Source: Bacteroidales bacterium (GTDB lineage Bacteria > Bacteroidota > Bacteroidia > Bacteroidales > JAOZQN01). From it: DNA of 44,140 bases. Made by a program: the position numbers and the translations under genes. The notes below the pieces were generated by a model. The model did not search any database. It saw nothing but the letters and a program-made list of their open reading frames with translations, and was not told where the DNA came from. The stretch is from the NCBI GenBank assembly GCA_029932195.1, contig JAOZQN010000001.1:10595-54734 (forward strand). Reading direction: 5' to 3'. Positions 267-34,742 of the stretch are shown here, piece by piece; positions within the stretch are counted from its first letter, which is position 1; every line of letters starts with the position of its first letter.

Positions 267-800
267 TTGGCTTTTAATCGAACCGTAGGAGAACACGATA
301 TTTTAGATTGGGACGGAACAGGAACACCAACAACAAGCATGTTTGTTGGGTATAACGGAAATGTGGGTATAAACACAACAACTCCAATATACACACTAGC
401 AGTAAACGGCTCAGCAGGAAAACCAGGTGGAGGTTACTGGACAAACTGGTCTGATAAACAATTAAAAGACATAAATGGAGACTACGAAAAAGGTTTAGAT
501 GAGATAGTTAAATTACACACAGTAAAATATAAATACAAAAAAGACAATACACTTGATTTGCCAAGCAACGAAGAATATGTAGGTTTTATAGCCCAAGAAG
601 TTCAAGCAATATTTCCCGAAGCTGTAAGTAAAAGCGAAAACGGGTATTTAGATTTGAATGTAAATTCAATTAATATTGCAATGGTAAACGCAATAAAAGA
701 GCTAAAAGAAGAAAATGATAATCTAAAAGAAGAGAACGAAACCTTAAAAACAGAGTTTGAAGACTTGAAAATAAGAATAGAAAATTTAGAAAATAAATAA
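267..800 (+). CDS. C-terminal part of a fibre-like protein with peptidase S74 (intramolecular chaperone) domain and terminal coiled coil
   Basis: GNVGINTTTP, WTNWSDKQLK (SDxxLK), GFIAQEVQAIFPEAV, NAIKELKEEN coiled coil. Its frame is open from 210, overlapping the upstream fragment. Confidence 0.8.
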   Translation: MAFNRTVGEHDILDWDGTGTPTTSMFVGYNGNVGINTTTPIYTLAVNGSAGKPGGGYWTNWSDKQLKDINGDYEKGLDEIVKLHTVKYKYKKDNTLDLPSNEEYVGFIAQEVQAIFPEAVSKSENGYLDLNVNSINIAMVNAIKELKEENDNLKEENETLKTEFEDLKIRIENLENK

Positions 801-18479: not shown

Positions 18480-20678
18480 TTACTGTATCAAATGATTCTT
18501 GCTATCAGCTTTTGCTTTCTCAATTAGTTCTTGGATTTTGTTGTTGCGAATTGTCCATTTTATTAGTTCGTAAACAACATCTTTTATGTTTTTCACATTT
18601 CCTACAATTTCTGGCAAAGTTAAATCTAATTCATAATCTAAAAAACGTTCAAGATTAGAATATTTTGGATATGCCGCAATAATTGCTTTTTCAAGTTGTT
18701 TTTTGTCTTTGCCATTCAATTTTAAAACTTTATTTTCTAATTGTGAGCTATATTTTTCTTCTTCCAGAAAATTTGTTTTTATGTCCGTAACACCATTCAA
18801 AAGTTCGGTTACAATTACGTCTTTGTAGCTTTTATCACATTGTTTTTCTCTTATGCCTTTTTCTTTTCTTCTCATTAATTCGGAATATTCAAAAAAATGA
18901 GGTTCTTTTTGGTTTTTGCATTCATTGCAAATACACGGCACAAGTTTTTCGTAATTTAGTTTTTTATAAGGGCTCAAAAGTTTGTCAAATTCGTTATTTA
19001 TTATGCCCAATAATTCTTTTTTCCTACTTCCGTATATGCGAATAAGAAATTTATTGCTTTTGTCGTAAGTTTCTTTTATTTCTGCCTGTGTGTTTTCAAA
19101 TTCTATGTTTACACCTCTGCTCCAAACAAGTTTTTGGTTTTGTATTCGGCGATGTAGGGCAACAATAATGCGTGGCATAATTCCACGAGGCATGTATTTG
19201 TCGAACTCGTAGGCAAATTGCAAAATTCCAATTTTATTTTCGTGATGCCATGCTTTGTATGGTTGCTCGGCGGGTAAATGTGCCGGAACAACATATTTTT
19301 TTGTGTTGTCAATTTCATACATCAAACCAAAGCGGTGCATTAAATGACTCAGGTTATCAATTTCTGCAAACATTTTGTCGCTATACCAAATTTCTTTAAT
19401 CTGTGTTTCGGAAAGTCTACCTTTGTTCTCTTTTACAATCTTATGATTCAGCACTTCGTAAACAGTATTAACAAGCCAATTGGAATTTAGATAAATACGA
19501 TTTTTGAGTATTTTATCGTCATAATAATGCGTAAAAACACCTATCCTGTTAAAATAATCGCTCAAATAATCAAGTTTTTTAGTGTCTGTTTTGTTTTTTT
19601 TGCAAATTTTAAAATAATGGTCGTAGCTAATAAATTTATCTTTCAGATTAAATAAATCTTTACGGATATTTACCCAAGAAGCAGGCAAAGGATTGCCAAT
19701 ACCAGGCAGTTCGGGGAGCAAATATTTTAGTTTATTTTGTAGTTTAACAATTCTATTGCTATCATTTTTTAAATCAACAGTAACAAAATCGGTGATTAAA
19801 TTTCCAAAACGACCTTTTAGACCGTTCTTATCAATTTGTGGCACATGCTCATGCTTTTTATTGATAACAATTAACAATTTACTATCCTCACCAGCAAGCT
19901 GTTCTATTGTATTTAACCAATATGCAAAATCGGTTCTCTCTTCACGAGTGTCGTCTATAAGCACATAAAAAGATTTTTTGCTAAAAAAGATTTGATGTGT
20001 TCCATGATACAATTTTTGCCCACCAAAATCCCACAAATTGGCATACATAGTTTGTTTGCCTCGCAAATGGTGCATGACTTCAAAATCCCATTTTGTAACC
20101 TCAATACCAAGAGTTGTGTCTTTGTCTTTTGGTAATTCTGCTGTTTTATCTTTTATTTTTACGGCAAAACTTGTTTTTCCAGCTCCTCCTTCTCCTATAA
20201 TAAGCAACTTAGTTTCAAATAGATACTCAACATTTCCAATTATTAGTTGTTCCAGATAATTTTTTACGGCATTACGCCCTTTTTCTAATATTTCAAAGGG
20301 TGGATTCTTCATAGGATTGTTTGTCAAAACATCGTCCCAGTTTTCTATATTTTTCAAGTTATTGAAAACATTATACGGTAATTCTGAAATATTATTATCA
20401 CTTAAATCGAGACCTCTCAGTCTTTTTAAATCTTTTAAAAATGAAATATCTGAAATTTCATTATCCCTTAAATAAAGACTTGTCAAGCTTTTTAACTCTT
20501 TTAAAAACTCAATAATCCTACCTAAGTCTTTAATTTTACAATTATATAAACTTAATTTGCTTACCTCATTTTTTTCGTTAAAAATATAATTTCTTGTATT
20601 CCATTCAATCTTGTCATTCCGTTCAAGTTCAACACCTAATTTTTGCTCTATTTGTTTTATAATTTGTAAGTTAGTCAT
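18480..20678 (-). CDS. Roco protein: short LRR - Roc GTPase - COR - Cys4 motif - C-terminal EAD1-like domain
   Basis: LxxLxLxxNxI repeats, GEGGAGKTS, TTLGI, WDFGGQ, YWL, PCICNEC...CDKS. Last 80 aa (LNGKDKKQLEKAIIAAYP...VYELIKW...IQELI) fit the EAD1 pattern. Confidence 0.88.
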   Translation of the reverse strand: MTNLQIIKQIEQKLGVELERNDKIEWNTRNYIFNEKNEVSKLSLYNCKIKDLGRIIEFLKELKSLTSLYLRDNEISDISFLKDLKRLRGLDLSDNNISELPYNVFNNLKNIENWDDVLTNNPMKNPPFEILEKGRNAVKNYLEQLIIGNVEYLFETKLLIIGEGGAGKTSFAVKIKDKTAELPKDKDTTLGIEVTKWDFEVMHHLRGKQTMYANLWDFGGQKLYHGTHQIFFSKKSFYVLIDDTREERTDFAYWLNTIEQLAGEDSKLLIVINKKHEHVPQIDKNGLKGRFGNLITDFVTVDLKNDSNRIVKLQNKLKYLLPELPGIGNPLPASWVNIRKDLFNLKDKFISYDHYFKICKKNKTDTKKLDYLSDYFNRIGVFTHYYDDKILKNRIYLNSNWLVNTVYEVLNHKIVKENKGRLSETQIKEIWYSDKMFAEIDNLSHLMHRFGLMYEIDNTKKYVVPAHLPAEQPYKAWHHENKIGILQFAYEFDKYMPRGIMPRIIVALHRRIQNQKLVWSRGVNIEFENTQAEIKETYDKSNKFLIRIYGSRKKELLGIINNEFDKLLSPYKKLNYEKLVPCICNECKNQKEPHFFEYSELMRRKEKGIREKQCDKSYKDVIVTELLNGVTDIKTNFLEEEKYSSQLENKVLKLNGKDKKQLEKAIIAAYPKYSNLERFLDYELDLTLPEIVGNVKNIKDVVYELIKWTIRNNKIQELIEKAKADSKNHLIQ

Positions 20679-20817
20679 AAGTAAGTGCTTAAATTTAAGT
20701 GTTTAGTTTTTAATTAGCTTTCGCCTGATAATAAATATGTTATAAAATTAATGAGTGTCGTTTTTGTAATTTTAATCTTCCTATTAAAAGTAACAATAAT
20801 CTTTCTCACAAAGCAAA

Positions 20818-20970
20818 AATAAGCCCAAAGAACTGAAAGGCAATAATCAGTGCATCGCACTGGGAGAATAAACAAAAATAGTAGTCAAGCATTGTGAGGC
20901 TTAATCCAAAATTTCGCTAAATCACAGAACTACGTCCTATATTATTATGTTTCAGGTCTTTGGGCTTATT
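20818..20970. mobile_element. ~150-bp MITE-like element upstream of the Roco gene
   Basis: TIR aataagcccaaagaactgaaa / tttcaggtctttgggcttatt. Confidence 0.7.
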
Positions 20971-21085
20971 ATGGTTTTACTTTGGGATCTAATTATAAGG
21001 TGCTTTTTTTTTCTAAGTTAAGTAGTCTCAAAAGTTTCTTTTATGTAATTTCTCGTGTAAAGCGTGGACGATTTACGCATTGTAT

Positions 21086-21118
21086 AACTTTGCCAAAGTT
21101 TAAAACTTTGGCAAAGTT
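21086..21118. repeat. REP-like palindrome or terminator after ribBA
   Basis: aactttgccaaagttt-a-aaactttggcaaagtt; relative at 27482-27512. Confidence 0.75.
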
Positions 21119-21167
21119 TGTTACTCGACAATATAAACTTGAAGCAACACTAGGTCGTAAAATGGAA

Positions 21168-22394
21168 TTAAATTTTATCGTAGTTATATTTTTTCAAATT
21201 GTGTCCCATTTTTACCTTTTTAGTTTTCATATAAAAAGCATTGTGTATATTGGGCTTAATCTCTATTGGTGCAATTTCTGTAACTTCCAGACCATAGCCT
21301 TGTAGTCCTATTTTTTTAACAGGATTATTTGTTAATAATTTCATTTTCTGCACACCAACACTTCTAAGTATTTGAGCACCAACCCCATAATCTCGCTCGT
21401 CATCTTCAAAACCAAGTTTATGATTTGCCTCCACAGTGTCGTATCCTTCCTCTTGAAGTTTGTATGCTTTAATTTTATTTGACAAACCAATCCCTCTACC
21501 TTCCTGATTCATATAAATAACTACGCCTTTTCCTGCTCTATCAATTTGTCGCATAGCTTCGTGAAGTTGGTCTCCGCAGTCGCAACGCTTTGAACCAAAA
21601 ATATCACCAGTAACACAAGACGAATGAACTCTCACAAGTATTGACTCATTTTCATTCCATTCACCTTTTATTAGTGCAACATGCTCTAAACCATTTGATT
21701 TCTGTAAAAAAGGTATCAAATTAAAATCACCAAAATCGGTTGGCATTTTTACTTCTACGCCTTTTTTTATTAGACTTTCGGTTTCCAGACGATATTTTAT
21801 CAAATCTTTGATAGAAATTATTTTCAAATCAAATTTTTCTGCTACTTTGTATAGGTCTGGAAGGCGAGCCATTGTGCCGTCGTCGTTCATTATTTCCACC
21901 AAAGTTCCTCCGGCTTTTAGTCCTGCCATAACAGCCAAATCCACAGCCGCCTCTGTATGACCAGCTCTACGAATAACTCCTTGTTTTTGTGCTTTTAGCG
22001 GAAAAATATGACCAGGACGTGCTAAATCGTCTGCTTTAGTTACCTCATCTACAAGAGAATTGATAGTTTTGGCACGGTCGTATGTAGAAATTCCTGTTGT
22101 GCAACCTTGCCCAATTAAATCTACCGAAACGGTAAATGGAGTTTCGTGTAAAGCAGTATTTTTACCTACCATTAGCTCTAAATCAAGCTGTTTGCATCGG
22201 TCTTCTGGAATTGCCAAACAGACTAGCCCCCTACCCTCTTTTATCATAAAATTAACAATTTCGGGAGTAACAAGCTCTGCCGCAGCAATAAAATCGCCTT
22301 CATTTTCTCTGTCTTCGTCATCAACAACAATAATTATTTTACCGTTTTTGATGTCTTCAATTGCTTCTGGTATTGTGTTTAATTTATTTTTCAT
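21168..22394 (-). CDS. ribBA: Bifunctional DHBP synthase / GTP cyclohydrolase II
   Basis: [57 protein letters not shown]. Confidence 0.97.
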
Positions 22395-22526
22395 TCAACT
22401 CAAGGTAATAATTATTTTAAAACTGATTATCATCTGATAAACAGCATTTTAACAAAACTAAATGTGGAAATTATTTTATCAAATCCTAATTTTTATAATA
22501 AAAATGTAAAAGTAGTTTTTTTTTTG

Positions 22527-22534
22527 TATATTTG
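22527..22534 (+). promoter_or_regulatory. -7 promoter element (TATATTTG)
   Basis: 30 bp upstream of the Uma2 start. Confidence 0.55.
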
Positions 22535-22564
22535 TATTTTATACGAAGTTAAATTTACAAAAAC

Positions 22565-23137
22565 ATGGCACAACCACATAAAAAGAAAGAATTACTAACA
22601 TTAAATGAATATCTTGAATTAGAAGAAACATCTGAAATAAAACACGAATTTTATTATGGCGAAATATTTTCTATGGCAGGAACTACACGTGTTCACAACG
22701 AAATTGAAGGAAATATAACTTTTAAGTTAAAAAAAGAATTGAAAAATATTAAAAAAGAACATTTTATATACTCCGAGTCAGTAAAAATAGAAATAACTAA
22801 AAATTATCATTACGCATATCCCGATGTTGTTGTTAGTTGTAGCGAAAAAGAGGACGACCCACTCTCAATAAAACATCCTATTTTAATTGTAGAAGTTTTA
22901 TCCGACAGCACTCGTGAATATGATATGAATAAAAAATTTGAATTTTATAAACAAATTCCAAGCTTGAAACATTATTTACTTATTGAACAAAATCAATATT
23001 TTATAAATTCTTATACAAAACAAAATGATTTTTGGTATCATAAATCTTATTCTAAAAAAGAAGACTTGGTAGAACTTTTGCATTTAGATATAAAAGTATC
23101 AGTAAAAGATATTTACGACAATGTTCAATTTGTTTGA
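22565..23137 (+). CDS. Uma2 (DUF820) family PD-(D/E)XK endonuclease-like protein
   Basis: KHEFYYGEIFSMAG..H, YPDVVV, P..IVEVLSDST..YD..KK..Y. Confidence 0.93.
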   Translation: MAQPHKKKELLTLNEYLELEETSEIKHEFYYGEIFSMAGTTRVHNEIEGNITFKLKKELKNIKKEHFIYSESVKIEITKNYHYAYPDVVVSCSEKEDDPLSIKHPILIVEVLSDSTREYDMNKKFEFYKQIPSLKHYLLIEQNQYFINSYTKQNDFWYHKSYSKKEDLVELLHLDIKVSVKDIYDNVQFV

Positions 23138-23159
23138 TTTGAGTGTGTAGCATAATGGA

Positions 23160-23226
23160 GGCTTTTGGTAGTTAGCTTTTGGCTTCGCAAAGCGATAAAA
23201 AATAAGCATATAGCCAAAAGCCAATA
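23160..23226. repeat. Inverted heptamer arrays with CGCAAAGCG (23186-23194)
   Basis: gcttttggtagttagcttttggctt-cgcaaagcg ... tagccaaaagccaata. Confidence 0.75.
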
Positions 23227-23232
23227 CCCCCT

Positions 23233-24456
23233 TTACACACTCGTTTGATTTCGTTTTGTTGGTTGCCAAATTCCTGATTTTACGCCTTTTGCCCACCTGA
23301 AAAAGCCTATAAATAAAGCAATATTCATGCTATAAAAATGAGTTATAAATCGTAAAATAGAAATGTGAATATTTATTTTTTTCAATAAAATATCCAAAAA
23401 AGGTAAGCTAAAAGAAAGTATTAAGCCCACAAACGAAAGTTGATATAAAATCTTATCTAATAAAAATATATTACTAATTAAAATTGTAACAATAAAAAAT
23501 GGAATTATCCAACGTAAAACTTTATGTGATAAAAAACTAAAAGAAACACCAAATTTACTTATATATCTTTTTGATTTTTTTTCAAAAGGATTTAATCCTA
23601 TAATTCCGAGTAATAATTTTTTAAATTTACTAAGATTTTGAAAATTGCCAGTTGCAATTCTTATTTTTCGTCTAAATTCGTCTTGCAAATTATTGGAAAC
23701 ATCTTCAAAAACAAGTGATCTTAAGTTATTTATAGCTCGATAACCTTTTTGCAGAACTTTCATATTTATATAAAAATCATCTACCAGAAAATTAGCAGGA
23801 ACAGGCTTGTAAAGCTCTCTTTTTATAGAATAACAACCTCCAAAAGGTCCCATCATAGTTCCCCAAATATTACTTTCAGCGTTTTTAATTCCAACTTCTC
23901 TCGAAATATATGCACTCTCCTGAACCGAAATTCCATCTTTAACCAACCCCTTGTTAATCATGTGAGTATCAACAAGTCCTATCTTTTCGTCTTTAAAATA
24001 TTTCACCATTTCAAAAACCGTATTTTCGTGAAAAAATACATTTGCATCGCTCAAAACAATAACACTACCTTTTGATTTATCAAAAATTTGATTAATAACA
24101 CCTGGCTTGCCCTGTCGTTTAGTGAACGGATAAAATTTTATGTTCGGATATTTTTTTGCGTAGGCACTAACAATTTCATTACTTCTATCGGAAGAATTAT
24201 CAGAGCCAATCAAAATCTCAATCTTCTCGGGAGGATAGTTTGATTTTAAAATAGTATCTATTTTTTCTGCAATAACCTCTTCTTCGTTAAATATTGACAT
24301 TAAAATAGATACAACAGGAAGTTCGTCGTTTCTACTAAAAAAAACAGCATTGCTATTTTTCTTATTTAATATTTTTAATATAATTGGATAAAAAATATAG
24401 GAGTGAAAAATAACCAATACTGATATCCAGAATAAAATTTGTAAAGTTATTTCCAT
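23233..24456 (-). CDS. GT2 family membrane glycosyltransferase (IcaA/PgaC-like)
   Basis: N-terminal TM, SIFNEE, GSDNSSD, GK, SDAN, VDDF, RKIRI, C-terminal TMs. Confidence 0.92.
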   Translation of the reverse strand: MEITLQILFWISVLVIFHSYIFYPIILKILNKKNSNAVFFSRNDELPVVSILMSIFNEEEVIAEKIDTILKSNYPPEKIEILIGSDNSSDRSNEIVSAYAKKYPNIKFYPFTKRQGKPGVINQIFDKSKGSVIVLSDANVFFHENTVFEMVKYFKDEKIGLVDTHMINKGLVKDGISVQESAYISREVGIKNAESNIWGTMMGPFGGCYSIKRELYKPVPANFLVDDFYINMKVLQKGYRAINNLRSLVFEDVSNNLQDEFRRKIRIATGNFQNLSKFKKLLLGIIGLNPFEKKSKRYISKFGVSFSFLSHKVLRWIIPFFIVTILISNIFLLDKILYQLSFVGLILSFSLPFLDILLKKINIHISILRFITHFYSMNIALFIGFFRWAKGVKSGIWQPTKRNQTSV

Positions 24457-24587
24457 ATATTTATATTTTTAAAGTCAATATTTTGTATTATTATCTTATT
24501 TTTTTCATTTTAAGATATTCAAAAACTTTTTTTTGTAATATATTTATATTATACTTTGGCATAATAATTCTTTTTAACTTTAGTCTG

Positions 24588-24595
24588 CAAATTTA
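24588..24595 (-). promoter_or_regulatory. -7 promoter element (TAAATTTG)
   Basis: Consensus match upstream of 24456. Confidence 0.45.
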
Positions 24596-24709
24596 CTATT
24601 TTTTTTAAAATTCCTACTTATTTATTAATTTATATTTTTATTCGTTAAAATAATGACAATTAAAAAAGCCAAACAGAAATATTTGACTTTTTAATTGTAA
24701 TTTTTGTAA

Positions 24710-24738
24710 TAGAGACGTGCCACATGGCACGTCTCTAC
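24710..24738. repeat. GTAG-family REP palindrome just after the DUF4465 gene stop
   Basis: Minus strand GTAGAGACGTGCCA-T-GTGGCACGTCTCTA; same GTAGAGACGTG start as 8397. Confidence 0.8.
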
Positions 24739-24747
24739 GGTAGATTT

Positions 24748-25716
24748 TTAATATTTTATTATTTTTTCAGAAACAACAACATTTTTTGAATTTATTTTTA
24801 AAATATAAATACCTGAATTAAAATTGGTTAAATCTATAATTTCGTTTTCTGAACAATTGTTTTTTTGATAAACAATTTTCCCAGAAATATCTGTTAAAGA
24901 AATTTGCCCCTCTCCCACTCTATTTATATTGATAAAATCTGTAGTTGGATTTGGATATATTTTTATCTCATTTTTAACATTTTCTGATACAGAAGTTATT
25001 GTCTCAAAAATTAAGTTATCAAAACAAAAATAAGTAGGATTTGTTATTCCAGAATCATTATATTTTGTAGAAGCAAATGTAAATGTCAAATTATCAATAG
25101 TTCCAAGAGGTGTTAAATCTACTTGTTGCCAATCATCAATAATAATTCCTTCTATTCCTGTGTAGTCTGCCAACAAAAATTCTACCTCTCCTGTTGAAAC
25201 ATCTCCATTTTTTCCTTCAATAATTAATTTAAAAAAGTCATCATTATCTGTTGTAAAAGCCTCGCTAAAAGTATCTCCATTTAAGATAGTTAGAGCTGCA
25301 TAAGTAGAATTTGTTACCCAAATTTCCGACACATTCACAGGGTTTTCAAAAGAACAGCTTGCCGTTCCTGTCGTCCAAAAACCTGATTGCAAGCCTCCTC
25401 CATAAGCAGGATAAACTATTCCAAAATTATCTCCACTAAATGCTTCTCCTGCATAAGTGCTGTATTGATTTTCGTAGCTATTGGTAGTTTGATCTGTTAA
25501 ATTTGAATAAGAGAAACCGTCCCACGAAAAATAATCTGAATTATAGTTATTCACAAAATTAACATACTCACTACCAAAACCTCCCGACTCATCAGAACCA
25601 TTCCAATAACCTTCGTCTGGCATTGTAAATTGTTCAAAATTAAATACTTGCTGCGAAAAAGCAACCATTGGCACTAACATTATAGATACCAATACAATTC
25701 TCATAAAATTTTTCAT
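24748..25716 (-). CDS. DUF4465 (BtuJ-like) domain protein with T9SS C-terminal domain; putative secreted cobalamin-binding protein
   Basis: Sec signal, YWNGSD, F.NNY...WDGFSYSN, VTNSTYA, FLLADY, W..VDL..LG, P.YFCFDN, CTD IYPNPTT...GIYILKI. Lies downstream of a B12 riboswitch. Confidence 0.85.
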   Translation of the reverse strand: MKNFMRIVLVSIMLVPMVAFSQQVFNFEQFTMPDEGYWNGSDESGGFGSEYVNFVNNYNSDYFSWDGFSYSNLTDQTTNSYENQYSTYAGEAFSGDNFGIVYPAYGGGLQSGFWTTGTASCSFENPVNVSEIWVTNSTYAALTILNGDTFSEAFTTDNDDFFKLIIEGKNGDVSTGEVEFLLADYTGIEGIIIDDWQQVDLTPLGTIDNLTFTFASTKYNDSGITNPTYFCFDNLIFETITSVSENVKNEIKIYPNPTTDFININRVGEGQISLTDISGKIVYQKNNCSENEIIDLTNFNSGIYILKINSKNVVVSEKIIKY

Positions 25717-25899
25717 CGTTAAAAAATTTAAAAGTTAATAAATAAAATTGTAAAGTATCAATATGATTAAATTGGTGAGATGTTGAGGGTGATTTATTAA
25801 AGAGTTGGTTATTTGCTTTATTTGATGAGTTGTTGTGTGAAACTCTAAAAAATAACTATTTTCAAATAAACCAATAAACAAATATACGAATAAACCATT

Positions 25900-26150
25900 C
25901 CCAAGCTATAACTCCCGACAGCTTAAAGATATTGAACCACAAAACAGTAGGTTTTCTGACTTATTCCATATTTTAAAAGCCTTCCCATCTTCCAAAATGA
26001 TAAATTAAGAATGAAGTATGTTAAATTTAATTAATCATTCAACATTAAAAATCAACCATTATAAAAAGCAGTGGCACAGATATTTAAAACGTAGAAAATT
26101 ACAGCAGCGGGGACTGTCTAGGATTTTCACCCAGTTCCCTTCCTGTTTTG
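25900..26150 (-). ncRNA. Cobalamin riboswitch
   Basis: Minus strand AGGGAA-CTGGGTGAAAATCCTAG-ACAGTCCCCGCTGCTGTAA...GCCACTG...GGGAAGG...AAGTCAGAAAACCT. P1 AAAACAG/CTGTTTT (26149-26143 / 25947-25941). Downstream AAGCTGTCGGGAGTTATAGCTT hairpin. Confidence 0.92.
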
Positions 26151-26156
26151 ATGTCG

Positions 26157-26164
26157 CAAAAGTA
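26157..26164 (-). promoter_or_regulatory. -7 promoter element (TACTTTTG) for the riboswitch transcript
   Basis: Immediately upstream of P1. Confidence 0.7.
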
Positions 26165-26204
26165 AAATATTTTTTAAATATTAACGCAAAACAGTTTTTT
26201 TTTT

Positions 26205-26212
26205 TACTTTTG
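26205..26212 (+). promoter_or_regulatory. -7 promoter element (TACTTTTG) for the cysD-led gene run
   Basis: Back-to-back with the riboswitch promoter. Confidence 0.55.
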
Positions 26213-26344
26213 TAGGAATTTTATTTAGGAAGGAGGAGTTAGGAAGGAAGAGGGAGAAAATTAGGAAGGAGGAAAAAATTAGAAGAACGAAAGTTAGTTT
26301 TTTCTAAAAAATCACCTTCTCCAACCTCCAAACCTCCTTCCTAA

Positions 26345-26504
26345 TACCAAACCGCAATCAAAATAGTGTTTTAGAAAAAGAATTGTTTTTTGTTTATTTG
26401 ATTTATCAAAATTCTTGCATAGCCGTAGCTATGAAACATTTTTTTAAAGAAAAATAAACAAAAAAGAAACGTTTTATATTCATTATTTTGATAACGGTTT
26501 GGTA
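26345..26504. mobile_element. 160-bp MITE with TAA target duplication, inserted in a heptamer array
   Basis: TIR TACCAAACCGCAATCAAAATA / TATTTTGATAACGGTTTGGTA (19/21). TAA at 26342-26344 and 26505-26507. Central catagc-cgta-gctatg. Confidence 0.8.
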
Positions 26505-26566
26505 TAAGAACCTCAAACCTCCCTCCTAACTCACTCACACATAAAACGAATAAACCAATATAAAAT

Positions 26567-27469
26567 ATGAAATACGAATTAAATCATTTACGAGAATTAG
26601 AATCGGAGTCAATATTTATAATGCGAGAGGTTGCGGCACAATTTGAGCGTCCTGCACTGCTTTTTTCGGGCGGAAAGGACTCAATTGTAATGTTTCATCT
26701 TGCTTTAAAAGCCTTTTATCCAGCAACTGTGCCATTTCCATTAGTGCATATTGATACAGGACACAACTTTGGCGAAGCTCTACAATTTAGAGACGACCTT
26801 GTTGCAGAACACGGTGTTCAACTGGTAGTTGGCTCGGTGCAAAAAACTATTGACGACGGTAAAGTGCAAGAAGAAACAGGTTATAATGCAAGCCGTAATA
26901 TGTTGCAGACAACCACTCTACTTGATACAATTGAAGAGGGAAAATTTGATGCAGCACTTGGCGGAGGTCGTCGAGATGAAGAGAAAGCCAGAGCAAAAGA
27001 ACGTTTTTTCTCTCACAGAGACGAGTTTGGACAATGGGACCCAAAAAATCAGCGACCAGAACTTTGGAATATTTTTAACGGTAAAAAACGTATGGGCGAA
27101 CATTTTCGTGTGTTCCCACTAAGCAACTGGACAGAGCTTGACGTTTGGCAATATATTTACATGGAACAAATCAAAATTCCTTCTATCTACTTCACACACA
27201 AGCGAGAAGTTTTTAATAGAGACGGACTTTTGCTTTCCACAGCTCCATTTATGAAACTAAAACCAAACGAAACGGCACAAGTTCTTGATGTTAGATGCCG
27301 AACTATTGGCGATATTACAAATACAGGTCTAACTATTTCAAAAGCGAATAATTTAGAAGATATTATTGAGGAAATTGCTGCAACCCGCACAACAGAACGT
27401 GGTGGCAGATTTGACGACAAACGCTCTGAAACAGCAATGGAAGATCGTAAAAAAGAAGGATATTTTTAA
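26567..27469 (+). CDS. cysD: Sulfate adenylyltransferase subunit 2
   Basis: LESESIFIMREV, FSGGKDS, GGRRDEEKARAKER, WDPKNQRPELW, MEDRKKEGYF. Confidence 0.97.
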   Translation: MKYELNHLRELESESIFIMREVAAQFERPALLFSGGKDSIVMFHLALKAFYPATVPFPLVHIDTGHNFGEALQFRDDLVAEHGVQLVVGSVQKTIDDGKVQEETGYNASRNMLQTTTLLDTIEEGKFDAALGGGRRDEEKARAKERFFSHRDEFGQWDPKNQRPELWNIFNGKKRMGEHFRVFPLSNWTELDVWQYIYMEQIKIPSIYFTHKREVFNRDGLLLSTAPFMKLKPNETAQVLDVRCRTIGDITNTGLTISKANNLEDIIEEIAATRTTERGGRFDDKRSETAMEDRKKEGYF

Positions 27470-27481
27470 TCTAAATTTTCA

Positions 27482-27512
27482 ACTTTGACAAAGTTTCGAG
27501 CTTTGTCAAAGT
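27482..27512. repeat. REP-like palindrome
   Basis: actttgacaaagtttcgagctttgtcaaagt. Confidence 0.7.
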
Positions 27513-27534
27513 AAAACTTCAAAACTTAAACAAA

Positions 27535-28404
27535 ATGACAACTCAAAATTTTACAGAAAAAAAGGCTTTTGCCATTTCTGGCTGGCCAATTATTTTAATA
27601 ATGATAATTTTTATGTCGATTTCGGCATTTATTTTTTTGTTCCCTTATAATAATATAGAGACATTAACTTTGTTAGCACCAATTAATTTTTTTGTATTCA
27701 TACTGACTGTTGGAGGATTATTTATTATTAATCCTAACCAAGCAAAGTTATTTTTATTTTTTGGGCATTATGCAGGAACAGTAAGAAAACATGGTTTACA
27801 ATGGACTATTCCAATTTTTAGCAAACGAACTATTTCTCTGAAATTAAGGAACTTTGAGTCGCAAAAGCTAAAAATAAATGACAACGAAGGAAATCCCGTA
27901 GAAGTAGCAGCAATAATTGTTTGGCGAGTTTTTGATACTGCCCAAGCCTCGTTTGAAGTCCAAGATTTTAATCATTTTGTAAAAGTTCAGAGTGAGTCAG
28001 CTATCCGAAATTTGATTATGCAATATTCCTACGACGACTACAAAAATGAAGAACGGTCTTTAATCAAAAATACGCAAGAAGTTTCGGAAAAATTAAAAGA
28101 GGAAACCCAAGAACGACTTACAATTGCTGGAATAGAAATAATAGAAACAAAAATAAGTCATTTGGCATATTCGCCAGAAATTGCCGCAGCAATGCTCCGA
28201 CGACAACAAGCAAAAGCAGTAGTTGCAGCAAGAACAGAAATTGTATATGGTGCAGTAGAAATGGTTGATATTGCTCTTAAAATGATAAATGAGAAAAAAC
28301 TTGTAGAGTTAGATGAAATTACAAAATCTAAAATGGTATCTAATCTATTAGTCGTTTTGTGTAGCGAACAAAATACTCAACCTACTCTGGAAACAACTTT
28401 TTAA
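27535..28404 (+). CDS. SPFH/band 7 domain membrane protein
   Basis: Two TMs, LFFGHYAGTV, KINDNEGNPVEVAAIIVW, HLAYSPEIAAAMLRRQQA. Confidence 0.93.
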   Translation: MTTQNFTEKKAFAISGWPIILIMIIFMSISAFIFLFPYNNIETLTLLAPINFFVFILTVGGLFIINPNQAKLFLFFGHYAGTVRKHGLQWTIPIFSKRTISLKLRNFESQKLKINDNEGNPVEVAAIIVWRVFDTAQASFEVQDFNHFVKVQSESAIRNLIMQYSYDDYKNEERSLIKNTQEVSEKLKEETQERLTIAGIEIIETKISHLAYSPEIAAAMLRRQQAKAVVAARTEIVYGAVEMVDIALKMINEKKLVELDEITKSKMVSNLLVVLCSEQNTQPTLETTF

Positions 28405-28479
28405 ATTTTGAAGTTGAGAATTTTTGAAAGATAGAACTTCAAAAATTCCTAACTTCAAAAATTCAAAACTTAATTAAAT

Positions 28480-29118
28480 ATGAAAAATGAGTTTTATTTT
28501 CAAATATTGGTTTCGGAAGAGCAAAAAAAATATGCACAAGAACTTGTAGATTATTCGCTTAAAAATCATCCTATCAGCAATATTTGGGATAGCAAAAAGA
28601 AAGACCAAACAGCAAAACTGCGATTTACGGGAACACTTGGAGAAATTATTTTTGCTGATACTTATAAATTGAAACGTCCAACTCGCTCGTTTGGTGCTAT
28701 TGATGGACAAGACTTTGGTAAAGATTTTGAAATAAAATTCAAAGACCGAACAATGAATTTTGACCTCAAAACAATGCACAGAAAATCTAACAAATTTTAT
28801 CAAAATTATGTTCTAAATATTCCTGCTCGCAACATAAAAAGAGTAGATAGTATTACTGATTTTTATTTTTGTATAAGTCTGCATGAGTCTGATAATAAAA
28901 CTATTGCATCATTTTTAGGCTATATTCCAAAACATGTTATTTTAAAAAATAAAATTGGAATTTTATACAAAAAAGGAACAATAAGAACTCGTGCCGATAA
29001 AACAAATTTTGAGTTTTTTGAAGATACCTACGAAGTGTTTTTTAAAAATATTACAACTCCTTTTACAAGTCCAAGAATTAGAAAATTTGTGGATTTTAAA
29101 ATTTTGAAATTAAAATAA
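28480..29118 (+). CDS. Hypothetical protein, probable PD-(D/E)XK restriction-endonuclease-like fold
   Basis: GTLGE helix, DFGKDF, FDLKT give E...D...DxK spacing; basic protein. Confidence 0.6.
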   Translation: MKNEFYFQILVSEEQKKYAQELVDYSLKNHPISNIWDSKKKDQTAKLRFTGTLGEIIFADTYKLKRPTRSFGAIDGQDFGKDFEIKFKDRTMNFDLKTMHRKSNKFYQNYVLNIPARNIKRVDSITDFYFCISLHESDNKTIASFLGYIPKHVILKNKIGILYKKGTIRTRADKTNFEFFEDTYEVFFKNITTPFTSPRIRKFVDFKILKLK

Positions 29119-29146
29119 TAGACTTATCTTTCAACAAGCAACCAAT

Positions 29147-29288
29147 GAGTCCACTCCGAGAAGTGTATTTTTGCCAAAATCAAGGCGGATATGAATTTCA
29201 CAAACGGAGTTTACTTACTGTAAATGAGTATTTTAAAATTTGTATCCAACGCAGAGTTTGGCAAAAAGATGCTTTTCGGAGTGGACTC
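29147..29288. mobile_element. 142-bp MITE, copy 3
   Basis: Same TIR and length as the other copies; flanks accaat / accaac. Confidence 0.9.
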
Positions 29289-29370
29289 ACCAACAGTTTT
29301 TTTGGTAAATCTATTTATGATAACACAAATTAAAAACGAACAACTAAACACTTAAAACTAAATACTTTCT

Positions 29371-30180
29371 ATGCTTACGAACTACGAACTTGCCGTTTCC
29401 AACATAAGAATGGAGCTTAAAAATTATATAACAAAAAGCAATTTAAAATCGCTTGTGCTTGGGATTTCTGGCGGAATAGATAGTGCCCTGTGTGCAGCTC
29501 TCGCAAAACCTGTTTGCGACGAATTAAATATTCCCATAATTGGCAGAAGCATAACCATTTCCACCAATAAGGCAGACGAAATTAGTCGTGCAAAAAATGT
29601 AGGAGAATCCTATCTTACAGATTTTAGAGATACTAACCTAACTTCAACTTACGACATGATGCAATTATCTGTTGTAGAAGATGTTGCAACGGCAAATAAA
29701 GACGAAAAGAGCTTTAAGATTCGTATGGGAAATATAAAAGCACGGATAAGAATGATTTATCTTTATGAATTGGCTTCTAAAAATAAAGGAATGGTTTTAT
29801 CCACAGATAATTACACCGAATATTTGCTCGGTTTTTGGACTCTTCATGGAGATGTTGGTGATTATGGAATGATACAAAATTTATGGAAAACAGAGGTTTA
29901 TGAAATGTCTCGTTTTCTTGCAAAAAACAATCCTGATAAAAAACAAGCAAAAGCACTTTTAGACTGCGTAACTGCTGTTCCCACAGATGGCCTGGGAATA
30001 ACAAACAGCGATTTAGACCAAATTCAAGCAGACAGCTACGAGGAAGTTGACCAAATCTTAATTGATTTTATCCTAAATAAAAGTAAAAAATTTGAAAACC
30101 ACCCAGTTATACAGAGAAATAAAGCATCTAATTTTAAAAGAATAAATCCTTATAATATGCCACGAAATAATATTGTTTAA
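29371..30180 (+). CDS. nadE: NH3-dependent NAD+ synthetase
   Basis: GISGGIDSA, GNIKARIRM, STDNYTE..GFWTLHGD, KTEVY. Confidence 0.93.
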   Translation: MLTNYELAVSNIRMELKNYITKSNLKSLVLGISGGIDSALCAALAKPVCDELNIPIIGRSITISTNKADEISRAKNVGESYLTDFRDTNLTSTYDMMQLSVVEDVATANKDEKSFKIRMGNIKARIRMIYLYELASKNKGMVLSTDNYTEYLLGFWTLHGDVGDYGMIQNLWKTEVYEMSRFLAKNNPDKKQAKALLDCVTAVPTDGLGITNSDLDQIQADSYEEVDQILIDFILNKSKKFENHPVIQRNKASNFKRINPYNMPRNNIV

Positions 30181-30248
30181 AAAATACACAAATCAACACT
30201 CCGAAAAGCATATTTAAACAAACAGTAAATCTACTATTAACTAATTTT

Positions 30249-30869
30249 ATGAGTCAATTAATAAGAATACACCCAGAAACACCTTCGCCAAAACATATAC
30301 AAAAAATTGTAGATATTTTGCGGAACGGAGGCGTTATAATTTATCCAACCGACTCGGTTTACGGAATTGGTTGTGATATAAACAACAAAAAAGCTGTTGA
30401 ACGAGTAGCTCAAATTAAGGGCGAAAAAGTAAAAAAATCTAATTTCTCGTTTATTTTTAGCGAAATTAGTGAAACTGCCGAGTATATTAAACCAATAAAT
30501 CGGAATTTATTTAAAATAATGAATAAAAACTTGCCTGGTCCGTTCACTTTTATTTTGCCTGCAAGTAAGAAAATTCCTAAAATTTTAGAAAAATCACGGA
30601 AAAATTTAGGAGTGAGAATTCCTGATAATAATATTGTTAGAGATATAGTTAGAGAACTTGGAAATCCAATTATCACAACTTCTGTTCACGACGATGATGA
30701 AATTATAGAATATACAACCGATGCCGAACTAATCTATGAAAAATACGAAAATCAGGTAGATATTGTGATTGATGGAGGAATTGGAAACAACGAAGCCTCA
30801 ACAATAGTAGATTGTAGCGACGGTGAACCAGAAATTACAAGACAAGGAATTAGAGAACTAAGATATTAA
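30249..30869 (+). CDS. Sua5/YciO/YrdC family threonylcarbamoyl-AMP synthase-like protein
   Basis: YPTDSVYGIGC, LPGPFTFIL, GVRIP, PIITTS, STIVD. RIHPETP start is typical of the YciO clade. Confidence 0.93.
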   Translation: MSQLIRIHPETPSPKHIQKIVDILRNGGVIIYPTDSVYGIGCDINNKKAVERVAQIKGEKVKKSNFSFIFSEISETAEYIKPINRNLFKIMNKNLPGPFTFILPASKKIPKILEKSRKNLGVRIPDNNIVRDIVRELGNPIITTSVHDDDEIIEYTTDAELIYEKYENQVDIVIDGGIGNNEASTIVDCSDGEPEITRQGIRELRY

Positions 30870-30874
30870 AAAAA

Positions 30875-30960
30875 TTAGCTGTTGGCTGTTGTCTTTTGGC
30901 ACGCAAAGCGATAAGTCTAAAAACCAATAAGCCAACATCTAAAAGCCAATAACCAACAGC
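30875..30960. repeat. Inverted heptamer arrays with CGCAAAGCG (30902-30910)
   Basis: ttagctgttggctgttgtcttttggca-cgcaaagcg ... aagccaacatctaaaagccaataaccaacagc. Confidence 0.75.
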
Positions 30961-30978
30961 AAAAAACACATAATAAAA

Positions 30979-32028
30979 ATGAAAAAAACGCTCGTAATAA
31001 TATTTCTAATAACCTTTGTTTTAAATAGTTATTCACAAATAGGAGGCACGGCAACCTATAAATTTTTAGACTTACCAACATCTGCAAGAGTTTCGGCACT
31101 TGGCGGAAATAATATTTCTATTGCCGACGACGACTTAAATCTCGTTTACAACAATCCTGCTTTATTGGATAGTTCTATGGCTAATACTCTTACAATGAGT
31201 TATGTAAATTACTTTGCAGATATAAATTGGGGATATGCTTCTTATGCTTTCAAAACAAAAAAACTTGGCACAATTGCCGCAGGAATGCACTATGTAGATT
31301 ACGGAAAATTTACAGGAGCAGATGAGTTTGGAAATAAAAACGGAGATTTTTATGCTTCCGAATATGCACTAAATATCTTTTGGGCGTATCAAATAGATTC
31401 GTTCTGGACAGCGGGAGTAAATTTTAAGCCAATACTTTCTGTATTAGAAAGTTACAACTCTTTTGGGCTTGCTTTTGATTTTGGTATAAATTATAATCGC
31501 CCAGAAAAAGGTTTTTCTGCGGCATTTGTTATTAAAAATCTTGGCTCGCAAATAAAACCCTATTATGGAAAAAACTACGAACCTCTACCTTTTGATTTAC
31601 AAGTCGGTATGACTAAAAAATTGGCTCATGCACCATTTCGCTTTTCACTTTTAGCACAGCACCTTCAAAAACCAAACTTAAATTATACAATTCCTGAAAA
31701 TGAAAACATTGTGCAGTTTGATAGCCAGACAGCCACAAAAGAAAATATTGCTCTAAAATATTCTGATATGGCAATGCGACACCTTATAATAGGATTGGAA
31801 TTTATGCCCGCAAAAGCCTTCACCGCAAATATTGGATACAATCACCAAAGAAGGCAAGAACTACGATTGACAAATAAAGCTGGTTTTTCAGGTTTTTCTT
31901 ATGGTATCGGAATTAATCTAAAAAAATTCTATATCGGATACGGAAGAGCAAATTATCATCTTGCAGGTGCTTCAAATAATTTTTCTGTGAGAATAAATTT
32001 TAACGAGTTTTATAATAAAAAAAATTAG
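30979..32028 (+). CDS. porQ: Type IX secretion system outer-membrane protein PorQ
   Basis: QIGG..Y.FL.LP.SAR..ALGG, NPALL, KKLAHAPFRFS, H.IIG.E, GYNHQRRQEL. Confidence 0.88.
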   Translation: MKKTLVIIFLITFVLNSYSQIGGTATYKFLDLPTSARVSALGGNNISIADDDLNLVYNNPALLDSSMANTLTMSYVNYFADINWGYASYAFKTKKLGTIAAGMHYVDYGKFTGADEFGNKNGDFYASEYALNIFWAYQIDSFWTAGVNFKPILSVLESYNSFGLAFDFGINYNRPEKGFSAAFVIKNLGSQIKPYYGKNYEPLPFDLQVGMTKKLAHAPFRFSLLAQHLQKPNLNYTIPENENIVQFDSQTATKENIALKYSDMAMRHLIIGLEFMPAKAFTANIGYNHQRRQELRLTNKAGFSGFSYGIGINLKKFYIGYGRANYHLAGASNNFSVRINFNEFYNKKN

Positions 32029-32093
32029 ACAGACTAACTTTTAATGAATTGAAATTTTATAATAAAAACTAATTTTAAAACTTGAAAAATAAA

Positions 32094-34742
32094 ATGACCG
32101 ACGAACAAATTTTAAAGAAATTAGAAAAACAATTAAATATTAAATTTGAAAAAGTTAATAAGATAAATCTTTTTGATAAAAAACCATGTTTTGAAATTAA
32201 TAATGGTAATATTACAGGTCTTCTTATCAGAAATGTAATTATTGAAGATTTAAGTTTGATAAGTAAATTGGTTAATTTAGAAGAACTTTATTTGTCAGAT
32301 AATCAAATAAAAAACATTTCAGATTTAAAAATTTTAAAAAATATTTCAGAACTTGATTTGTCAAATAATCAAATAAAAGATATTTCTATTTTACAAAAAT
32401 TGGAAAAAATTACATTACTTGATTTGTCAAATAATCAAATAAAAGATATTTCTTTTTTAGAAAATTTAAAAAAGATCGAAGTTCTTTTTTTATCAGATAA
32501 TCAAATAAAAGATATTTCGGTTTTGCAAAATTTGAAAAATCTTATGGTATTTTATTTGTCAGATAATCAAATAAAAAACATTTCAGATTTAAAAATTTTA
32601 AAAAATATTTCAGAACTTGATTTGTCAAATAATCAAATAAAAGATATTTCTTTTTTACAAAATTTAAAAAACATTAAACTTCTTGATTTATATAGTAATC
32701 AAATAAAAGATATATCAGTATTAAAAAATTTATTAAAAAAAGAAAATTCTTTTGATAAAGATTTTTTTGATTTTAATTTTAATTTAAAAAACAATCCCTT
32801 AAAAACGCCTCCTAAAGAACTTGCTGAACTTGGCAGAGATGCTATAAACGAATATTTTGAACATATAGAACTTGGTTACACCGTTTTGAAAGAGGCAAAA
32901 TTAATAATAATTGGCGAAGCTGGTGCTGGCAAAACTACTTTTGCCAAAAAACTTATAAACGCTAATGCCAAAATGCCAGAACAAAACGAAACTACACTCG
33001 GCATAGATGTTTATAATTGGCAATTTGAAACAAATTTGAATAATACAGAAAGTCCAAAATTCAATGCTAAATTGTGGGACTTCGGTGGGCAAGATATTTA
33101 TCATGGCACGCATCAGTTCTTTTTTAGTCAAAAATCGCTTTACATTTTAATTTCTGATGCTCGAGACCAAAGAACAGATTTTAATTATTGGCTAAATACG
33201 GTGGAACAATTAACGGGAGAGAATAGTATTCTTCTGGTTTTGTTTAACAAAAGAGAAGGACGAAATTGGAAATTAGAAGATGAATACGGATTAAATAGAC
33301 GTTTTGAAGGAATGATAAAAAAAGTTATTTCAATAGATTTATCAAATATAGATGAAATACCGCATTTGCAACAGCAAATACAAAAAGAAATAACAAATTT
33401 GCCACAAATAGATTATCGCTTACCAACAACTTGGGTAAATATTCGCAAAGAACTTAGCAAGCTGACAGACAGATATATTAGCTACGAAAAATTTAGAGAT
33501 ATTTGTAATCAAAATAATATAACAAATCCCAAAGTTATAGAAATTATTAGCAAATTATTTACAAATATAGGCGTTTTTACTCATTTTATAGAAGAAGAAA
33601 CAAATTTGCAAGATATAATATTTCTTGATTCTAATTGGCTTACAAAAACAGTTTATTCATTGTTAGACAATCAGATAGTAATAGAAAATAAAGGAAAAAT
33701 TACACGCACAGAAGTAAATCAAATATTAAAAACAGAAGAATTATATTTTGATGTAGATAAATTTATAGAACTATTAAAAAAATTTAGTTTAATATATAAA
33801 ATAAATGGTAGTCAAAATTATATTGTTCCATACCATTTGAAAGCCGGGCAGCCTTACAAAAAATGGAAATATATAGATGACAAAAATGTTTATATTTTTC
33901 GTTATTTATTTGATAATTATATGCCAAAAGGAATTATGGTAAAACTTATTGTTGCTTTGCATCAATATATTTACGACCACGAACTTGTGTGGGCAAGAGG
34001 TGTAAATATCTCTAATTCAGTGAATAAACCCGATACTTTTGCGGAAATTATAGAAACTTATGGACGAGAAAATCGTTTTGATATAAGAATTTATGGTAAA
34101 AATCAAAAAGACCTTTTGCAAATAATAATTTATCATTTCGATAAAATATTAAAACCATTCACAAAACTAACTCACGAAAAAGAAGTGCCATGCAATTGTG
34201 AGACTTGCATTACAAGTGATAATCCACATTTTTTTAAATATAAGTCTTTGTTAAAACGAAAAGAAAAAGGAAAAACTACAATTGAATGTGATAAAAGTTT
34301 TGAAGATACTAATATAAAAGAATTGCTTGAAGGAATTGATTTTTCGGAACTGCGAAGTTTATTAATAAATAAAAAATTTGAGGAATTTAAACAACAAATA
34401 TCTCAACGCTTTTCCGATATTTCGTATCAAATACATAAAAAGACTGTTTCGGAAAGTTTTTTTCATAGCAATTTTCATACTATTTTAGCAGAGAATGGTT
34501 TAAAACCAATTTCAGAAGAAAGCACAAACGACGGCAGAATAGATTTACACCTTTCTATTGATAAAACAAAATATTTGTTTGAACTAAAATTAAAAGAAAG
34601 CAAAGATGACGGTATGAAACAAATTCATGAAAAAAAATATTATAACAAATTTTTGGGACAGTTCGATAAAATAATCTTAATAGCTATTAGTTTTAGCACA
34701 AAAACACGAAATATAGATAAAATAGAATATGAAATTTTATAA
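32094..34742 (+). CDS. Roco protein: LRR array - Roc GTPase - COR - Cys4 motif - C-terminal PD-(D/E)XK nuclease (PDDEXK_9-like)
   Basis: Seven regular 22-aa LRRs, GEAGAGKTT, WDFGGQ, PCNCETC...CDKS, then SESFFH...EE...GRIDL...YLFELK...QIHEKKYY. Start set at ATG 32094 by alignment with the paralog. Confidence 0.9.
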   Translation: MTDEQILKKLEKQLNIKFEKVNKINLFDKKPCFEINNGNITGLLIRNVIIEDLSLISKLVNLEELYLSDNQIKNISDLKILKNISELDLSNNQIKDISILQKLEKITLLDLSNNQIKDISFLENLKKIEVLFLSDNQIKDISVLQNLKNLMVFYLSDNQIKNISDLKILKNISELDLSNNQIKDISFLQNLKNIKLLDLYSNQIKDISVLKNLLKKENSFDKDFFDFNFNLKNNPLKTPPKELAELGRDAINEYFEHIELGYTVLKEAKLIIIGEAGAGKTTFAKKLINANAKMPEQNETTLGIDVYNWQFETNLNNTESPKFNAKLWDFGGQDIYHGTHQFFFSQKSLYILISDARDQRTDFNYWLNTVEQLTGENSILLVLFNKREGRNWKLEDEYGLNRRFEGMIKKVISIDLSNIDEIPHLQQQIQKEITNLPQIDYRLPTTWVNIRKELSKLTDRYISYEKFRDICNQNNITNPKVIEIISKLFTNIGVFTHFIEEETNLQDIIFLDSNWLTKTVYSLLDNQIVIENKGKITRTEVNQILKTEELYFDVDKFIELLKKFSLIYKINGSQNYIVPYHLKAGQPYKKWKYIDDKNVYIFRYLFDNYMPKGIMVKLIVALHQYIYDHELVWARGVNISNSVNKPDTFAEIIETYGRENRFDIRIYGKNQKDLLQIIIYHFDKILKPFTKLTHEKEVPCNCETCITSDNPHFFKYKSLLKRKEKGKTTIECDKSFEDTNIKELLEGIDFSELRSLLINKKFEEFKQQISQRFSDISYQIHKKTVSESFFHSNFHTILAENGLKPISEESTNDGRIDLHLSIDKTKYLFELKLKESKDDGMKQIHEKKYYNKFLGQFDKIILIAISFSTKTRNIDKIEYEIL
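32287..32651 (+). repeat. Exact 101-bp direct repeat within the LRR array (32287-32387 = 32551-32651)
   Basis: Offset 264 bp = 4 x 66-bp LRR units. Confidence 0.85.

Follow-up and report, generated by a model that had tools for sequence, protein, structure and literature searches.

Two LRR-Roc-COR proteins of a Bacteroidales genome: likely members of a predicted class of conflict systems with exchanged C-terminal modules

Two genes in a 44,140-nucleotide stretch of a Bacteroidales genome (contig JAOZQN010000001.1, positions 10,595 to 54,734; hereafter the window, which is part of the contig that we call C618) encode the proteins P0001 and P0002, each of which joins leucine-rich repeats (LRRs) to a Roc-COR core and a C-terminal tail. 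The human proteins LRRK2 and DAPK1 have bacterial relatives in the LRR-Roco proteins, whose role in bacteria is so far a prediction. We consider P0001 and P0002 likely members of the bacterial LRR-Roc-COR (“AP-GTPase”) conflict systems, that is, cytoplasmic single-chain receptors that would act through a nuclease of their own (P0002) or through a relay by the adaptor domain EAD1 (P0001). In the mechanism that we propose, the fast-changing N-terminal LRR array would recognize a ligand derived from an invader or from stress, the Roc-COR nucleotide switch would then change state, and the module past an ELLxG junction would execute or relay a suicidal or growth-arresting response; the role that we infer for such a response is phage defense. 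In P0002, the PD-(D/E)XK nuclease-type effector of the same chain would act. In P0001, EAD1 would most likely recruit an EAD1-bearing caspase-like CHAT protease encoded elsewhere: either the EAD1-CHAT protein of contig C736 or the Roc-COR-EAD1-CHAT protein of contig C301.

The architecture of the two proteins is clear (Table 1). A preliminary description, made from the DNA letters alone, had read both genes as Roco open reading frames (ORFs), and Pfam confirms this: Roc, COR-A and COR-B stand in tandem in both proteins, all above their cut-offs. The Pfam E-values are 1.1e-10 (LRR_4), 5.1e-22 (Roc), 3e-31 (COR-A), 1.1e-34 (COR-B) and 8.7e-11 (EAD1; 42.6 bits against a cut-off of 24.2) for P0001, and 4.6e-27 (LRR_4) and 6e-16 (PDDEXK_9; 58.8 bits against 25.5) for P0002. 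BLASTP aligns the two proteins with 274 identities over 630 positions (43%, E 1e-170), and the N-terminal caps align as a separate high-scoring pair (36% over 129 aa, E 8e-12). The longer alignment runs up to ELLNGV630 of P0001 and ELLEGI748 of P0002, exactly to the positions (18789 and 34337) where the description had placed the break of the shared cap-through-COR region. Past this junction BLASTP aligned nothing between the tails, which agrees with the claim that they are unrelated. A loose LxxLxLxxNxI pattern counts 3 LRR units in P0001 and 7 in P0002, the numbers that had been estimated, and Tandem Repeats Finder reports a 66-nt period in both genes (1.9 copies at 20383-20507 and 6.8 copies at 32285-32732). 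As an interpretation of the pair, the description is partly supported: its core idea holds and needs corrections. The tails after the switch do swap, but the EAD1 tail is an adaptor and not an effector. The logic of repeat sensor, NTPase switch and exchangeable tail is that of NLR (nucleotide-binding LRR) receptors, but the switch is a Ras-like Roc GTPase and not an NTPase of the STAND (signal transduction ATPases with numerous domains) type, and “NLR-like” is therefore an analogy rather than a membership. NACHT and nSTAND models gave matches below threshold over a short P-loop stretch only; in P0002, NACHT reached 16.9 bits against a cut-off of 26.7 at residues 270-293.

Table 1. Positions of the two Roco genes, their domains and other genes in the window
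Feature	Position	Strand	Length or residues	Remarks
P0001	18480..20678	-	732 aa	LRR-Roc-COR-A-COR-B-EAD1; sensor/switch with adaptor tail, without an enzymatic effector of its own
P0001 LRR region	20304..20567	-	~38-125	3 repeat units and C-terminal cap
P0001 Roc	19854..20210	-	157-275	P-loop GEGGAGKT162-169; switch I TTLGI188-192; DFGGQ217-221; G4 NKKH273-276 (19851-19862)
P0001 COR-A and COR-B	18792..19685	-	332-467 and 485-629	homology to P0002 stops at V630 (18789)
P0001 EAD1 adaptor domain	18498..18722	-	653-727	Pfam
P0002	32094..34742	+	882 aa	LRR-Roc-COR-A-COR-B-PDDEXK_9; sensor and switch with fused nuclease-type effector; alternative TTG start at 32082
P0002 LRR array	32205..32732	+		1 degenerate unit, then 7 canonical 22-aa units
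P0002 Roc	32898..33251	+	269-386	P-loop GEAGAGKT274-281; DFGGQ329-333; G4 NKRE385-388 (33246-33257)
P0002 COR-A and COR-B	33423..34334	+	444-580 and 598-747	junction I748 (34337)
P0002 PDDEXK_9 nuclease-type module	34449..34718	+	786-875	D817 (GRID), E830/K832 (FELK)
ORF downstream of P0001	16961..18367	-	468 aa	no family match, no EAD1
Ppl-like gene (PHP plus ABC-type ATPase)	37142..39709			PADLOC Ppl match, E 2.2e-37, N-terminal 310 residues only
Schlafen/AlbA_2 + HATPase_c_4 gene	39697..40929			overlaps the Ppl-like gene by 13 nt
Uma2-family putative restriction endonuclease	22565..23137			PADLOC candidate PDC-S03 match, E 4.1e-26
Peptidase_S74 (endosialidase chaperone) ORF	267..800		177 aa	isolated among cellular genes

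The two genes belong to a larger repertoire. The assembly (6.73 Mb in 944 contigs, 97.6% complete) holds 8 COR-A matches, each within a frame of 740-1002 aa that no stop codon interrupts, and their tails are EAD1 in four (followed in one by CHAT), PDDEXK_9 in two, a 185-aa module in one and a two-transmembrane (2-TM) module in one. Besides P0001 and P0002, these proteins, named by their contigs, are C96 (809 aa, LRR-Roc-COR-PDDEXK_9), C736 (943 aa) and C904 (855 aa), both LRR-Roc-COR-EAD1, C301 (920 aa, Roc-COR-EAD1-CHAT, no LRR), C780 (943 aa, LRR-Roc-COR with a 185-aa tail without a Pfam match) and C917 (824 aa, LRR-Roc-COR with a tail of two hydrophobic helices, the 2-TM module). Their LRRs range from none (C301) to 7 LRR_4 stretches (C736). 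The distribution within the order is patchy: of 40 related genomes, 8 carry COR-A, at 1-10 copies each, with 6 in the congeneric genome (G001). All 37 COR-A matches of these relatives were scanned as ORFs for tail domains (Pfam, 1e-5). The C780-type module of 185-190 aa was found in 9 (8 of them aligned, with 59-74% identity to C780, and one tandem twin), PDDEXK_9 in 8, TIR in 2 with 1 further weak match, EAD11 in 2, and EAD7, an ABC/AAA_21-type ATPase and an MCU-like membrane domain in 1 each; 6 had tails of 130-260 aa without a Pfam match at this threshold (one of them the weak TIR match), 2 had almost none and 5 were fragments. The claim of a dispersed repertoire, with a constant GTPase core and variation at both ends, is borne out by the 4 or more kinds of tail on the 8 COR genes and by additional tails in relatives. 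This tabulation of the COR genes, which the description had proposed as a check, contradicts the picture of only two architectures, fixed and syntenic across relatives, because there are at least 4 tail types in this genome, further tails in the relatives and tail differences between close cores.

These tail differences can be read from a tree of the Roc-COR core (quick maximum likelihood, LG+G4, 42 rows, with three fragments excluded), in which several branches are long, and therefore only the close pairs are to be leaned on. P0001 groups with the C736 Roco-EAD1 protein (support 100; 79% identical), and the sister of this pair is a PDDEXK_9 protein from the congeneric genome; all three are nested in a 17-row clade (support 99) that otherwise mostly carries PDDEXK_9. 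EAD1 appears again in a distant clade (C301 and C904), and a close sister pair in another genome has a TIR tail on one protein and an MCU-like tail on the other. Over the 40 labeled rows, the tail takes 17 changes for 15 states. In addition, a protein from a Bacteroidales metagenome-assembled genome (L064:3-1937), the only close match to P0001 in the species collection searched, is 70% identical to P0001 residues 120-641 and ends in a two-helix membrane module. Because of the core-tree pairs and this protein with another tail, we conclude that tails have been exchanged at one junction among close cores. The L064 tail resembles the 2-TM module of C917.

Further observations concern the relatives and the C780-type tail. 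Tandem Roco duplicates with identical cores occur in relative G016 (C301a/b and C664a/b; L035, L042). In relative G039 (loci L049, L043), the second copy of the C170a/b Roco pair is without the nuclease tail, and the frame of the C13 Roco gene is broken by a TGA. The C780-type module is the commonest tail in one relative, with 7 copies. In this module (L014:6027-6593 and 8 relatives), E38/D39, E71/D73/K75 and E88 are invariant. Its predicted model has a predicted local distance difference test (pLDDT) score of 76; the top rows in VIA-align are the BamHI-like restriction enzymes OkrAI, BamHI, BstYI and BglII at Z 7.0-7.6, where Z below 8 is middling, followed by CdiA-CT, McrC and NucC as further PD-(D/E)XK nucleases, and the best Foldseek match is YaeQ (E 2.7e-3). 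The module may thus be nuclease-like.

We next consider how P0001 could act through its EAD1. The domain is a C-terminal match to the Pfam model, shows no enzymatic motifs and is helical throughout in its predicted model (mean pLDDT 68.6). Kaur et al. 2020 define EAD1 as a small, non-enzymatic, helical domain, one copy of which sits on a core component and another on an effector, frequently encoded by the next gene, and they propose that homotypic contact couples the two. Since EAD1 is a coupling adaptor, P0001 would be an effector-less sensor. Five EAD1 copies were found in the genome: four on Roco proteins and one that is N-terminal in a CHAT protease; tblastn against the assembly yielded one gasdermin and two CHAT genes and added no EAD1 copy. 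The second, effector-fused EAD1 is therefore present in the same genome in two forms. The C736 EAD1-CHAT gene begins 61 nt beyond the stop codon of the Roco-EAD1 gene on that contig and is cut off by the contig end, and the C301 gene (L018:301-3060) encodes EAD1 and CHAT in one chain with Roc-COR. The EAD1 of P0001 is 48% identical to that of the C736 Roco protein and 33% identical to that of C736 EAD1-CHAT. The two CHAT proteins contain SGHG / NAC and SMHS / TAC, which we take to be the His/Cys motifs of caspase-like proteases. Only 14 nt after the C301 gene follows a 266-aa gasdermin homologue (L018:3075-3872; E 3.7e-19 against the Runella gasdermin 7n51), and the contig continues (L018:3882-10886) with genes for a coiled-coil protein, a MoxR-type AAA+ protein, a vWA protein, a 110-aa ORF and two LRR proteins. 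C301 is a large conflict-system locus that resembles the tested Runella gasdermin system.

From the shared EAD1 and the position of the C301 protease beside a gasdermin, we propose a relay from P0001 to CHAT and gasdermin; by analogy, as the common adaptor suggests, this EAD1 sensor probably feeds the CHAT-gasdermin death pathway. More tentatively, and with the odds against it, one could imagine a whole sensor/helper network: P0001, C736 and C904 would be alternative, effector-less Roco-EAD1 sensors that signal by homotypic EAD1 contacts to the two EAD1-CHAT proteases, one of them an LRR-less Roc-COR protein, and these would cleave the single gasdermin. This would be a bacterial inflammasome-like cascade, from sensor over death-type adaptor and caspase-like protease to gasdermin, built on a Ras-like GTPase whose G4 guanine specificity is lost and not on a STAND ATPase. 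A complex prediction for the EAD1 of P0001 with that of the C736 CHAT protein, made with 5-row alignments, scored 0.15 against a mark of 0.32 and weighs neither way. Two further ideas were set aside. The 468-aa ORF downstream of P0001 does not qualify as an EAD1 partner (Table 1), and by its sequence it may be a housekeeping enzyme. A kinship of EAD1 with the Death fold was not retained: the EAD1 model had no Foldseek match in the PDB better than E 5.5, and the Death-domain row (E 8.6, probability 0.07) is no evidence.

P0002 is a self-contained sensor with a predicted PD-(D/E)XK nuclease effector. All 9 Roco-PDDEXK_9 tails that were aligned share D817, E830 and K832. When the tail was searched against a database, 26 proteins matched, 23 of them Roco-PDDEXK_9 proteins with 58-100% tail identity and the other 3 AAA-ATPase_like+PDDEXK_9 proteins with 32-37%; none of the 26 carries a functional name. 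The LRR array of P0002 contains a three-repeat (203-nt) block that occurs again 264 nt (four units) downstream at 87% identity. A database protein of 794 aa (P0007) equals P0002 outside the array, and its array is 88 residues, that is, four repeat units, shorter. The difference between 882 and 794 aa may be allelic, in the number of LRRs, or may come from a collapsed assembly; among the listed Logan contigs of four runs, no piece spanned the array and no joints were found. For the stretch 31900-33300, four public runs (X1-X4), labeled as hydrothermal vent metagenome and coming from two studies, hold 81-96% of the sampled words. P0002 lies 2.4 kb upstream of the Ppl-like PHP-ATPase gene and the Schlafen/AlbA_2 gene, two genes that are also found in the congeneric genome at 72% DNA identity. 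In G001, the contig with the DUF3352 homologue opens within an ORF whose remaining 49 codons do not resemble a PDDEXK_9 tail, and no ORF of at least 30 aa starts within 275 nt of the homologue of P0002's upstream neighbor; this is a hint that the P0002 locus may differ there.

Several observations speak against our interpretation of P0001 and P0002 as immune receptors, and they have to be weighed together with the explanations that they favor. No effector or EAD1 partner adjoins P0001, which is flanked by ribBA and the 468-aa ORF, and there is no gasdermin or protease gene adjoining either Roco gene in the window. P0002 is flanked by a predicted outer-membrane protein upstream (a 349-aa ORF with a signal-peptide-like start and no family match) and a DUF3352 protein downstream. 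PADLOC has no model that matches P0001 or P0002, and this includes the Avs and NACHT models. In the literature, we found no experimental test of any LRR-Roco protein in phage defense and no experimental defense phenotype. The congeneric contigs end at both Roco loci, and the synteny of P0001 therefore cannot be read. If these proteins were housekeeping or developmental signaling GTPases, for example in motility, the envelope or group behavior, with ordinary output domains as tails and no role in defense, the missing PADLOC match and defense phenotype would be expected, as would the position of P0001 and several EAD-tailed relatives between housekeeping genes and outside recognizable defense islands; the two EAD11-tailed relatives have such genes on their flanks. 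We nevertheless regard this explanation as improbable: the tails (PD-(D/E)XK, TIR, CHAT, membrane modules and EAD adaptors) are the usual kit of conflict systems, they are swapped between close cores, the distribution is patchy as described above, and P0002 and close relatives stand beside Ppl-like, AAA_15/21+HNH and AAA-ATPase_like+PDDEXK_9 genes. The last two kinds follow the L064 Roco gene. The EAD7-tailed relative lies between another Roco gene and a gene for an EAD11-domain protein. The same architecture and death effectors could also serve self/non-self or kin conflict, that is, allorecognition or the control of mobile elements or cheaters, with another trigger. The many paralogues in the genome and an LRR number that may differ between near-identical alleles (882 and 794 aa) would suit such a role, and NTP-dependent systems have been linked to the multicellular habit in bacteria by Kaur et al. 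2020. Sequence does not separate kin conflict from antiviral sensing, but there is a defense-type gene near P0002 and there are others beside the L064 relative, and we hold this explanation to be scarcely less improbable than the housekeeping one.

The remaining points concern the Roc switch itself. All 8 paralogues of this genome keep the Gly, Lys and Thr of the P-loop, the Thr of switch I and DFGGQ (DxxGQ), which argues that nucleotide binding and hydrolysis are under selection. The G4 motif is different. Guanine-specific Ras-like GTPases have N/TKxD at this position, with an Asp that reads guanine, where P0001 has NKKH and P0002 has NKRE, against NKID in the Chlorobium Roco protein; in motif columns from a fast MAFFT alignment (--retree 2) of 45 full-length proteins, the Asp is kept in 0 of 17 rows of the P0001/P0002 clade and in all 11 rows of another clade, made up of 185-aa-module proteins (10 rows) and G019_C2. 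Because this Asp is lost, guanine specificity and a classical GTPase switch are not assured for P0001 and P0002, and, as far as the motif tells, the nucleotide specificity of their clade may differ. One may go further and suppose that Roc in this clade no longer works as a guanine-nucleotide switch, being a static scaffold or binding another nucleotide, even if the proteins are immune sensors; against the invariant P-loop and DFGGQ, we think this unlikely, although it deserves more weight than the two explanations above. Receptors of the LRR-Roc-COR conflict class, with a nuclease of their own or an EAD1 relay, remain our preferred account of P0002 and P0001.

Other features of the window are noted here. 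G+C falls to 0.24 (32001-34000) and 0.23 (38001-40000) across the Roco-PDDEXK_9 and Ppl-like genes, against about 0.30 elsewhere. The Uma2-family gene and the ORF with a Peptidase_S74 domain, a domain typical of phage tail fiber ends, are listed in Table 1. Type IX secretion system (T9SS) sorting domains are present on several window proteins and, like the L064 match in a Bacteroidales genome, mark the assembly as Bacteroidota-like.

Judged as a sequence finding, this feature is ordinary: a prediction in print already covers the class, its modular build and its expansion into paralogues, and P0001 and P0002 are a good example of a published class. Its value is not novelty of kind but a testable sensor-adaptor-protease-gasdermin set, compact and in one genome, with the sensor-nuclease P0002, the effector-less EAD1 sensor P0001, two EAD1-CHAT proteases and one gasdermin. 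If this set works, it would give the first functional evidence for Roco-based immunity, a test of the EAD coupling principle and a natural model for the control of an output domain by Roc-COR.

Among known systems, the Chlorobium tepidum Roco protein (CtRoco; PDB 6hlu, 8r4b, 3dpu), a bacterial model for LRRK2, provides the best solved match to P0001: its chain 6hlu_A covers the cap, LRRs, Roc and COR (residues 59-630, E 4.9e-77). The two differ in G4, as described above, and the match ends at residue 630; the CtRoco work that we found treats the GTPase model and not the biological role. The STAND/NLR receptors (Avs, bNACHT, animal and plant NLRs) share with P0001 and P0002 a repeat sensor, an NTPase switch and an exchangeable effector or adaptor, but use a STAND ATPase where our proteins have Roc and COR; the likeness is one of analogy and not of homology. 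In Runella, a protease labeled Roc-COR-CHAT cleaves and activates the adjacent gasdermin, and toxicity and membrane damage depend on this step, according to Johnson et al. (bioRxiv 10.1101/2021.06.07.447441). The C301 Roc-COR-EAD1-CHAT protein and its gasdermin are the counterpart of the Runella zeae system in this genome, and P0001 shares the EAD1 of that protease; in contrast, the window genes have no gasdermin or protease beside them, and P0001 has LRRs and no CHAT. The closest comparison is with the LRR-AP-GTPase-COR class, which a purely computational study predicted to be counter-invader systems and for which it describes 24 or more tail domains and genomes with many paralogues (Kaur et al., eLife 2021;10:e70394). 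The text of this study names GT4, TIR, DRHyd, caspase, trypsin, FGS and EADs, and it was with these names only that PDDEXK_9, the 185-aa module and the 2-TM module were compared. The family described here shows the marks of that class: LRR variation, variable tails, multiple paralogues and a patchy distribution. The two have in common variable N-terminal LRRs, a core of AP-GTPase and COR, a variable C-terminal effector or EAD, and many differently tailed paralogues: 11 with different effectors in Haliscomenobacter (Kaur et al., eLife 2021;10:e70394) and 8 in the present genome.

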